From Escherichia coli (lineage in GTDB: Bacteria > Pseudomonadota > Gammaproteobacteria > Enterobacterales > Enterobacteriaceae): DNA of 64,000 nucleotides. How positions within the stretch are numbered: the first letter of the stretch is position 1; every line of letters starts with the position of its first letter. A program made the translations under genes and the position numbers. Below the pieces are notes generated by a model. That model ran no database searches, had not been told where the DNA came from, and saw only the letters and a list, made by a program, of their open reading frames with translations. This document shows positions 29,758-32,883 of the stretch, one piece after another. The DNA lies in the NCBI RefSeq assembly GCF_003018255.1, contig NZ_CP027440.1; one strand, written 5' to 3'.

Positions 29758-31014
29758 ATGCTCCATCCGCGAGCCAGAACCATGTTGTTATTATCGCTCC
29801 CCGCCGTGGCAATTGGGATTGCGTCCAGTCTTATTCTGATTGTGGTGATGAAAATCGCCTCGGTATTACAGAATTTGCTCTGGCAACGACTGCCGGGAAC
29901 TCTGGGGATAGCCCAGGATTCACCTCTCTGGATCATCGGTGTATTAACGCTAACGGGTATTGCAGTGGGGTTGGTTATCCGTTTCAGCCAGGGTCATGCC
30001 GGACCAGACCCCGCCTGTGAACCGCTGATCGGCGCACCAGTTCCGCCCTCTGCGCTACCAGGACTTATCGTAGCATTAATTCTTGGTCTTGCTGGTGGCG
30101 TCAGCCTGGGGCCAGAACATCCGATCATGACCGTCAATATCGCCCTTGCGGTTGCCATTGGCGCTCGTCTGTTACCGCGCGTCAACCGAATGGAGTGGAC
30201 TATTTTAGCCTCTGCCGGAACCATCGGCGCGCTGTTTGGCACACCTGTTGCGGCGGCGTTGATATTTTCGCAAACCTTAAATGGCAGTAGTGAAGTTCCG
30301 CTATGGGATCGTCTTTTTGCGCCGTTAATGGCGGCAGCAGCTGGTGCACTAACTACCGGATTATTTTTCCATCCTCATTTTTCACTGCCCATTGCGCATT
30401 ACGGACAGATGCAAATGACCGATATTCTCAGTGGTGCAATTGTCGCGGCGATTGCCATCGCAGCAGGGATGGTCGCCGTATGGTGCTTACCACGATTGCA
30501 CGCGATGATGCATCAAATGAAAAATCCGGTGCTCGTGCTGGGTATTGGCGGATTTATTCTCGGTATTCTGGGGGTTATGGGTGGACCAGTTTCGCTGTTT
30601 AAAGGGCTGGATGAGATGCAGCAGATGGTGGCAAATCAGGCTTTCAGCACCAGCGATTACTTTTTGCTGGCGGTGATTAAACTTGCCGCCCTGGTCGTTG
30701 CTGCCGCCAGTGGCTTTCGCGGTGGGCGAATCTTCCCGGCAGTGTTTGTCGGCGTGGCATTAGGGTTGATGCTGCATGAGCACGTCCCCGCCGTTCCAGC
30801 GGCAATAACCGTTTCCTGCGCTATTCTCGGCATCGTGCTGGTGGTAACACGCGATGGCTGGTTAAGTCTTTTTATGGCGGCAGTCGTTGTACCCAATACC
30901 ACATTGCTACCGCTGCTCTGTATCGTCATGCTTCCGGCATGGCTGTTATTAGCAGGTAAGCCGATGATGATGGTCAATCGTCCGAAGCAACAGCCCCCCC
31001 ACGATAACGTTTAG
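29758..31014 (+). CDS. yfeO: ClC-like (voltage-gated chloride channel family) membrane protein
   Basis: 418-aa polytopic ORF with GxxxG-rich helices. Confidence 0.88.
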
Positions 31015-31128
31015 CAAAAAATGCTCTCCTTTATGATTTAAGAGTTATGGCGATGATACGGGGCTTTACCTCCCCGTAATATTGCGTTAACAGGCCGCTG
31101 ACGGCTTCGATCGTGAAGGAGAATAACA

Positions 31129-31455
31129 ATGTTCAGGTCACTGTTTCTGGCGGCCGCCCTGATGGCATTTACCCCGCTTGCGGCAAACGCAGGTGAAATC
31201 ACCCTACTGCCATCAATCAAATTACAAATTGGCGATCGCGATCATTACGGTAATTACTGGGACGGTGGTCACTGGCGCGACCGTGACTACTGGCATCGCA
31301 ATTATGAATGGCGTAAAAACCGCTGGTGGCGTCATGATAATGGCTACCACCGTGGCTGGGATAAGCGTAAAGCGTATGAGCGTGGCTATCGTGAAGGCTG
31401 GCGCGATCGTGACGATCATCGCGGAAAAGGCCGCGGACATGGACACCGCCATTAA
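31129..31455 (+). CDS. ypeC: Secreted low-complexity Trp/Arg/His/Asp-rich protein
   Basis: 108-aa ORF; signal peptide ([21 protein letters not shown]) then repetitive WRDRDYW / WRDRDDH / GHGHRH segments; GGAG 7 nt upstream. Confidence 0.85.
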
Positions 31456-31479
31456 ACACATTCGCCAATGGAGCACAAT

Positions 31480-31590
<111 letters not shown>

Positions 31591-31595
31591 TTCAA

Positions 31596-32843
<1,248 letters not shown>

Positions 32844-32846
32844 CTA

Positions 32847-32868
32847 AAACATAGCCTTTGCTATGTTT
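32847..32868. promoter_or_regulatory. MntR-type operator palindrome in mntH promoter
   Basis: AAACATAGC-CTTT-GCTATGTTT, perfect 9-bp arms, 13 bp upstream of mntH start codon. Confidence 0.7.
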
Positions 32869-32883
32869 CATGCTATGTCAAAC

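Follow-up and report, generated by a model that had tools for sequence, protein, structure and literature searches.

The gene at positions 31129 to 31455 of the window (the whole 64,000-nucleotide stretch of Escherichia coli DNA that was analyzed) raises two linked questions: what an exported-type protein of such biased composition might bind, and whether its place beside the manganese transporter gene mntH bears on that function. The gene is ypeC, which is already known as an annotated E. coli gene for a small exported-type protein. RefSeq names its product “DUF2502 domain-containing protein YpeC” and places it between yfeO and the convergent mntH, UniProt enters the protein as uncharacterized (P64542, cited in PMC12389024), and a 2018 paper states its function as unknown. 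It is an ordinary “y-gene,” and its analysis is useful rather than surprising to specialists.

ypeC is a real protein gene under strong purifying selection. The open reading frame on the plus strand (31129 to 31455) has an ATG start and comprises 108 codons plus the stop, and a Shine-Dalgarno sequence, AAGGAG (31116 to 31121, plus strand), lies 7 nucleotides 5′ of the ATG and is kept in the alignment. The 108-amino-acid product matches the Pfam family DUF2502 (PF10697) over profile positions 1 to 90 of 90, with an E value of 3.1e-24 and a score of 85.4 bits, the curated gathering cutoff being 27 bits. All 43 aligned relatives of YpeC match the same family, and a Pfam search of these 43 members at an E value of ≤1 returned DUF2502 alone; no NCBIfam model matched YpeC. 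Comparison of ypeC with its counterparts in E. albertii, Citrobacter, and Salmonella gave dN/dS values of 0.04 to 0.06 (about 0.05) with dS near 1, and dN/dS was equally low in residues 22 to 70 and in the “low-complexity” residues 71 to 108. With an 801-bp query around ypeC and a coverage of at least 80%, the region was found in 5317 of the 5426 complete E. coli genomes (98%). The median of three matching places per genome is due to REP palindromes contained within the query.

Three further long open reading frames overlap ypeC, at 31178 to 31537 (plus strand, 119 amino acids), 31217 to 31468 (minus strand, 83 amino acids), and 31222 to 31476 (minus strand, 84 amino acids), and they stay open because of the biased codon content of ypeC. 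Many database proteins are frame-shifted forms of YpeC that switch into the frame starting at 31178 and end in ...IRPTNRLFNA. Examples are P0002 and P0107, the latter coming from a 4.6-Mb genome.

The N terminus of YpeC looks like a Sec signal peptide, as the original prediction had claimed. Residues 1 to 21 (31129 to 31191, plus strand) comprise a basic n-region (MFR), a hydrophobic core with a mean Kyte-Doolittle value of 2.6, and an A-x-A site with predicted cleavage at ANA|GE, the position of which is kept family-wide in DUF2502. No twin-arginine motif is present in this region. YpeC contains no cysteine anywhere and no lipobox, and because it lacks cysteine, it is not a lipoprotein. These features suggest that YpeC is exported. 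The predicted mature protein of 87 amino acids has an extreme composition, with 18% Arg, 15% Gly, 11.5% Asp, 10% His, 9% Trp, and 8% Tyr, a pI of about 10, and a GRAVY score of −2.1, in agreement with the bias toward W, R, H, D, and Y noted originally.

The further claim that the protein is made largely of repeats did not hold. The only exact repeat of at least five residues in YpeC is WRDRD, which occurs twice (P about 0.02 in composition-preserving shuffles). A Smith-Waterman comparison of the N-terminal with the C-terminal half scored 33, under the shuffle mean of 39, which makes the two halves no more alike than shuffled sequences, and a BLASTP search for internal repeats retrieved nothing except the same pentamer. 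An internal repeat or duplication was rejected on these grounds, and the apparent pattern is compositional bias combined with a strongly conserved unique sequence, not an array.

The sole part of YpeC that behaves as an expanding repeat is an HRGWD(K) / KGWYK unit, which separates the core from the AYERGY segment and is present in one to three copies among genera. Copy number variants are seen in the orthologs P0029, P0048, P0074, and P0091 (columns 70 to 90 of alignment A1).

Conservation and structure prediction suggest that the mature protein has two parts, a folded core rich in aromatic and charged residues, followed by a flexible, cationic tail that is rich in His at its tip. The conserved core (residues 22 to 70; 31192 to 31338, plus strand) comprises about 48 residues with the motif GDRDxxGxYWDGxxWRDxxW. 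Across 38 diverse DUF2502 members, P28, G35, G41, Y43, W44, D45, and G46 are invariant, and L26, L32, D36, D38, W49, and W55 are nearly so; conservation in the wider family is confined to the first 35 or so mature residues, and some distant members carry the core motif twice in tandem. AlphaFold2 models residues 23 to 70 as a small strand-and-helix unit, with a pLDDT of about 88 to 92 for residues 30 to 70, from a shallow alignment of 38 to 43 sequences and with no corroborating structural neighbor. Residues 72 to 108 are modeled with low confidence (pLDDT below 50). A profile search of the PDB found no match (best E value, 8), a Foldseek search of the model against the PDB found no fold match (best E value, 8.7), and searches of Pfam, NCBIfam, and the PDB showed no similarity to Spy/CpxP/ZraP, RcnB, or other periplasmic stress and metal families. 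YpeC also shows no enzyme-like or catalytic signature. The original statement that neither a fold nor a function could be assigned therefore stands: the predicted core has no sequence or fold match in the PDB.

The second part (31339 to 31452, plus strand) consists of a basic aromatic segment and the His-rich tip GHGHRH. The tail segment is nearly invariant among Enterobacteriaceae orthologs, in which the Gly/His tip is variable and takes the form (GH)n HH, HRH, or HHHH. The last 12 residues of 75 orthologs contain a mean of 4.5 histidines. Among DUF2502 members, the tails vary (Pro/His-rich or Asp/His-rich), and the intact ones almost always end in a His-rich stretch.

Orthologs of YpeC in about 20 Enterobacteriaceae genera are 70 to 95% identical. 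An exhaustive HMMER scan of 1.84 billion representative proteins retrieved only 85 clusters, all of short proteins, and the named members come from Enterobacteriaceae, Yersiniaceae (Chimaeribacter and Rouxiella), and one betaproteobacterium, Jeongeupia. A Serratia homolog has also been described (PMC8470065). DUF2502 is a tiny family, essentially restricted to Enterobacterales plus rare others. This phyletic range parallels that of the Rcs system. Two public records are at odds with their labels: a 398-bp contig assigned to Rhizobium wenxiniae encodes a protein 100% identical to E. coli YpeC (L013), and an assembly of Chryseobacterium sp. 18061 contains a complete Enterobacteriaceae yfeO-ypeC-mntH-nupC locus (L064). 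Both are probably contamination or mislabeling.

The gene order in the window is glk, yfeO, ypeC, mntH, and nupC. ypeC is transcribed as a separate unit and converges on mntH, and the 3′ ends of the two genes are 140 bp apart. They are separated by two REP palindromes at 31480 to 31511 and 31538 to 31567, which correspond to the inverted repeats I4 and I5; the only Rfam matches 3′ of ypeC are two sub-threshold matches to the REP-derived naRNA4 (E values of 5e-7 and 2e-6). The convergent arrangement with mntH that the original prediction pointed to is confirmed, whereas the functional link that it implied is not supported by either operators or synteny. A perfect MntR box (22/22) lies at 32847 to 32868 in the mntH promoter, 1.7 kb from ypeC, and a Fur box (15/19) lies at the same far, 5′ end of mntH. 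Nothing comparable was found upstream of ypeC, where the best MntR match is 15/22 (four of these positions being N) and the best Fur match is 12/19. With no comparable operator of its own and with convergent genes, ypeC cannot be placed in the MntR or Fur regulon or in an mntH operon.

Of 79 loci from different species, 70 have ypeC next to mntH, and so do members that are 40% identical and members of the Yersiniaceae type. The adjacency forms part of a larger collinear block, in which glk is followed by yfeO and/or genes for a thiamine-diphosphate decarboxylase (ipdC in Salmonella) and an aldo-keto reductase and then by ypeC, mntH, and nupC. The 5′ neighbor of ypeC differs among loci. In the Citrobacter freundii group, genes for a DeoR-HTH/PfkB sugar kinase and a periplasmic sugar-binding protein stand between ypeC and mntH. 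One DUF2502 locus has an inserted methyltransferase gene, and another has no Nramp gene nearby. The paralog yaaX sits between thrC and yaaA, away from mntH, and the gene of the Jeongeupia homolog is flanked by genes for a Na/H exchanger and ABC permeases, with no mntH adjacency. Given the orientation of the genes, the places where the operators lie, and synteny that is interrupted or missing, functional coupling to mntH was rejected, and a functional tie of ypeC to manganese transport is not supported.

Two side observations concern this neighborhood. The Citrobacter insertion is found at L019:4603-6816 (Citrobacter sp. MGH106) and in loci L023 to L025, L027, and L081. Upstream of mntH, RefSeq lists a 14-codon open reading frame for a hypothetical protein (32827 to 32871, minus strand; L001:5928-5972) that overlaps the mntH start and occupies the same stretch as the perfect MntR operator; this frame may encode a leader peptide or result from misannotation.

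The region 5′ of ypeC contains several conserved modules, as revealed by an alignment of 76 ypeC upstream regions. A marbox for MarA, SoxS, and Rob lies on the minus strand at 31008 to 31027, with its core, gcattttttgctaaa, at 31010 to 31024. It overlaps the yfeO stop codon (31012 to 31014), agrees with the degenerate marbox consensus at 18 of 20 positions, and is nearly invariant in the 76 regions, whichever gene stands upstream. The core is identical to a published bound site, which places ypeC in the MarA/SoxS/Rob regulon, the binding itself being taken from the papers cited below. A second element, the conserved GATTTARGAGTT...C.AT box at 31035 to 31054 (plus strand), is kept across genera. 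It includes a TTTARGAGTT sequence (TTTAAGAGTT) at 31037 to 31046, which holds a single RcsB-type half-site (TARGA). No full RcsAB box (TaAGaatatTCctA, or TNRGAN4TCYNA for RcsB) was found upstream of ypeC, the best RcsAB match being 7/14. The 31035 to 31054 box is a candidate site for an Rcs-dependent activator.

Downstream of this box is a hairpin, CGGGGC-TTTACC-tCCCCG (31059 to 31076, plus strand), in which each of the six pairs has undergone compensatory changes in some genera, whereas the TTTAC loop is conserved. Its covariation score was reached by none of 500 shuffles. One possibility is that it terminates the upstream gene, another that it lies in a longer leader of ypeC. The hexamer TAATAT (31077 to 31082, plus strand), with an invariant TAnnAT pattern (A29, A32, and T33 are invariant and T28 is nearly so in 32 genera), is likely the −10 element of ypeC, and transcription would start near 31089. 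From that start, the marbox would be centered near −71 in reverse orientation, and the TTTARGAGTT box would lie near −45. Class I Mar/Sox promoters typically have a reverse marbox at about this position. The putative 5′ untranslated region contains a short GC hairpin, GGCCG...CGGCT (31092 to 31107, plus strand), with 74% of cells paired and three pairs with double changes; its stem is lengthened by an insertion in one ortholog. RNAalifold found no consensus structure in the upstream alignment, and the covarying hairpins were defined by hand after this null result. A sigma-70 promoter scan upstream of ypeC returned nothing at the tool threshold, and a terminator scan returned one terminator-like site, inside yfeO. 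The promoter model may be wrong, since the covarying hairpin at 31059 to 31076 occupies the expected promoter spacer. The upstream region of yaaX carries a similar sequence, ACGGGGattCTTTTACC (L092:2934-2950).

The published regulation of ypeC concerns envelope and antibiotic stress, not metal status. MarA chromatin immunoprecipitation sequencing in E. coli identified ypeC with the site gcattttttgctaaa, which was bound in vitro at 0.3 uM, and the SoxS targets found by ChIP-exo include ypeC (PMC5684230). In Salmonella, the same ypeC site is a SoxS target, and SoxS binding at ypeC is reported for both Salmonella and E. coli (PMC10268841). Inhibition of LolCDE raised ypeC expression 42- to 60-fold together with the Rcs regulon (PMC5105897), and in an O157:H7 strain with a disrupted rcsB, ypeC was down 23.7-fold (PMC5343319). 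The promoter of the Serratia DUF2502 gene SMDB11_2817 is up by several log10 in an Rcs-activated mutant in a manner that requires rcsB, and it has been used as an Rcs reporter (PMC8470065). The RcsB regulon list includes the paralog yaaX, whose inducers are colicin M and Lol inhibition; in the papers examined, a MarA/SoxS site is reported for ypeC, not for yaaX. ypeC also figures in lists of genes that respond to multiple stresses and to conjugation, and its rapid response to acid is weak. The searchable literature on ypeC and yaaX, which excludes supplementary tables, contains no metal-dependent regulation, and no ypeC mutant phenotype was found in it; searches by locus tag and by UniProt identifier retrieved only noise. 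Because no canonical box was found, Rcs control of ypeC may be indirect.

These observations have to be weighed against other explanations of the gene. That ypeC is a low-complexity open reading frame without function, open by chance or misannotated, with the RNA or the REP region as the functional element, has a negligible probability. The long open reading frames left by its low complexity in three other frames and the frame-shifted versions seen in databases speak for this explanation, but they do not account for a dN/dS of about 0.05 with dS near 1 in the ypeC frame, for an amino acid sequence kept across many genera and in a paralog, or for a gene with a strong Shine-Dalgarno sequence, a Pfam match, and a presence in 98% of E. 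coli genomes. The conservation pattern effectively excludes it. A periplasmic protein-directed stress factor, resembling other small periplasmic proteins induced by Rcs and serving either as a holdase or chaperone for damaged envelope proteins or as an inhibitor or decoy for an enzyme of a host or competitor, is improbable. YpeC is small, is abundantly induced, and has no catalytic motif, and treatments that activate Rcs induce ypeC together with spy, ivy, osmB, ymgD/G, and degP. However, YpeC resembles neither Spy/CpxP, Ivy, MliC, nor any solved structure in sequence or fold, and its GRAVY score leaves little hydrophobic surface for binding clients.

A role as a periplasmic protein that binds or buffers Zn, Ni, Cu, or Mn through the His-rich tip and Asp residues, with the mntH adjacency reflecting metal supply or protection, is unlikely, though it deserves more weight than the two preceding explanations. 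The composition of the His-rich C terminus ((GH)n, HHH, or HRH), if not its sequence, is kept across YpeC, YaaX, and distant members, and D36, D38, and D45 vary little or not at all. The convergent adjacency, which extends from most loci to the Yersiniaceae-type members, would also fit, yet the two genes have separate promoters, and only that of mntH carries MntR and Fur boxes. Moreover, the adjacency belongs to the larger collinear block, the sugar utilization cluster breaks it in some Citrobacter, and neither yaaX nor the Jeongeupia homolog shows it. Neither the searchable literature on ypeC and yaaX, in which no paper reports metal-dependent regulation, nor the comparisons with Pfam, NCBIfam, and the PDB, in which no known periplasmic metal-binding family is similar to YpeC, points to metal.

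The best reading, which we regard as an even call, is that YpeC is a periplasmic envelope stress protein, driven by Rcs, MarA, and SoxS, that binds some ligand in the envelope. YpeC would be Sec exported and would reside in the periplasm as a soluble mature protein of about 11 kDa. ypeC belongs to the response to envelope damage and antibiotics because it has a marbox bound by MarA and SoxS and is expressed in a strongly Rcs-dependent manner; it would respond to outer membrane, lipoprotein, and peptidoglycan damage and to antibiotics rather than serve manganese homeostasis. We infer that YpeC would work stoichiometrically, through binding its envelope ligand. The ligand favored here would be an anionic envelope polymer or a membrane surface, since Arg, Trp, Tyr, and Asp side chains are well matched to sugars and phosphates and the inducing stresses perturb those structures. 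Candidates are peptidoglycan, periplasmic glucans, lipopolysaccharide or phospholipid head groups, and capsule in transit. Composition and regulon membership suggest polyanion binding with modest confidence. The His-rich tip might add pH- or metal-dependent binding; judged from its residues, metal binding by the tip is plausible, and the tip would suit a metal ligand no less than a polyanion. The original suggestion of metal or anionic-polymer binding is a reasonable guess from the His, Asp, aromatic, and Arg chemistry, and the near-universal His-rich tip keeps its metal-binding part plausible, although regulation and genomic context lend metal binding no support.

A broader proposal is tentative and on the doubtful side, namely, that DUF2502 is an unrecognized periplasmic binding module, consisting of a mini-fold of about 45 residues, formed around the GDRDxxGxYWDGxxWRDxxWW motif and lacking any structural relative, and a His-tipped cationic tail, that is deployed by Rcs as YpeC and YaaX and either binds and stabilizes an anionic polymer or buffers divalent cations. 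If it is true, DUF2502 comes into play upon damage to the outer membrane or the cell wall. Few members of the Rcs envelope stress response are induced as strongly as ypeC, which MarA/SoxS also target directly in E. coli and Salmonella alike, and a ligand for YpeC would fill a gap in the understanding of enteric envelope protection against antibiotics, antimicrobial peptides, and lipoprotein-trafficking inhibitors. The analysis newly contributes a two-part architecture for the protein, a census that shows how narrow the family is, a set of conserved modules in the promoter region, and a negative result on the mntH link.

Set beside known systems, YpeC shares features with several groups of proteins. 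ZraP, ZinT, and the ZnuA loop are periplasmic and have a flexible His-rich segment able to chelate divalent transition metals, as that of YpeC could. Pfam and NCBIfam show no homology of YpeC to these proteins, and ypeC has no Zur, Fur, or MntR site; it is under the control of Rcs and MarA/SoxS rather than of metal sensors. In composition, YpeC (18% Arg, 9% Trp, 8% Tyr, and basic) is like Arg/Trp-rich cationic peptides and aromatic-rich glycan-binding repeats, and by analogy such a composition would be typical of binding to anionic membranes or sugars via cation-pi and stacking contacts. YpeC differs from them in having Asp interleaved with Arg and a conserved folded core and in being an endogenous, putatively periplasmic protein, and it has neither a demonstrable repeat architecture nor detected homology.

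OsmB, YmgD/YmgG, Ivy, Spy, Bdm, and YpfG form another group, the small Rcs regulon envelope proteins of Enterobacterales. Like YpeC, these proteins are small, exported or envelope associated, and lineage restricted, and their genes are coinduced with ypeC by lipoprotein-trafficking, peptidoglycan, and outer membrane damage. YpeC has no sequence or predicted fold relationship with these small Rcs regulon proteins, and it stands apart from them in its exceptional Arg/Trp/His/Asp composition and in not being a lipoprotein. The closest E. coli relative of YpeC is YaaX (b0005). The two differ in locus (thrC-yaaX-yaaA for yaaX) and in the tail, which in YaaX is Pro/His-rich and in YpeC contains a second, strongly conserved segment that is absent from YaaX. 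YaaX and other DUF2502 proteins share with YpeC the signal peptide, the EITLxPxxxLQIGDRDxxGxYWDGGxWRDxxWW core, and a low-complexity His-rich tail, and YaaX, like YpeC, is reported to be induced by Rcs.
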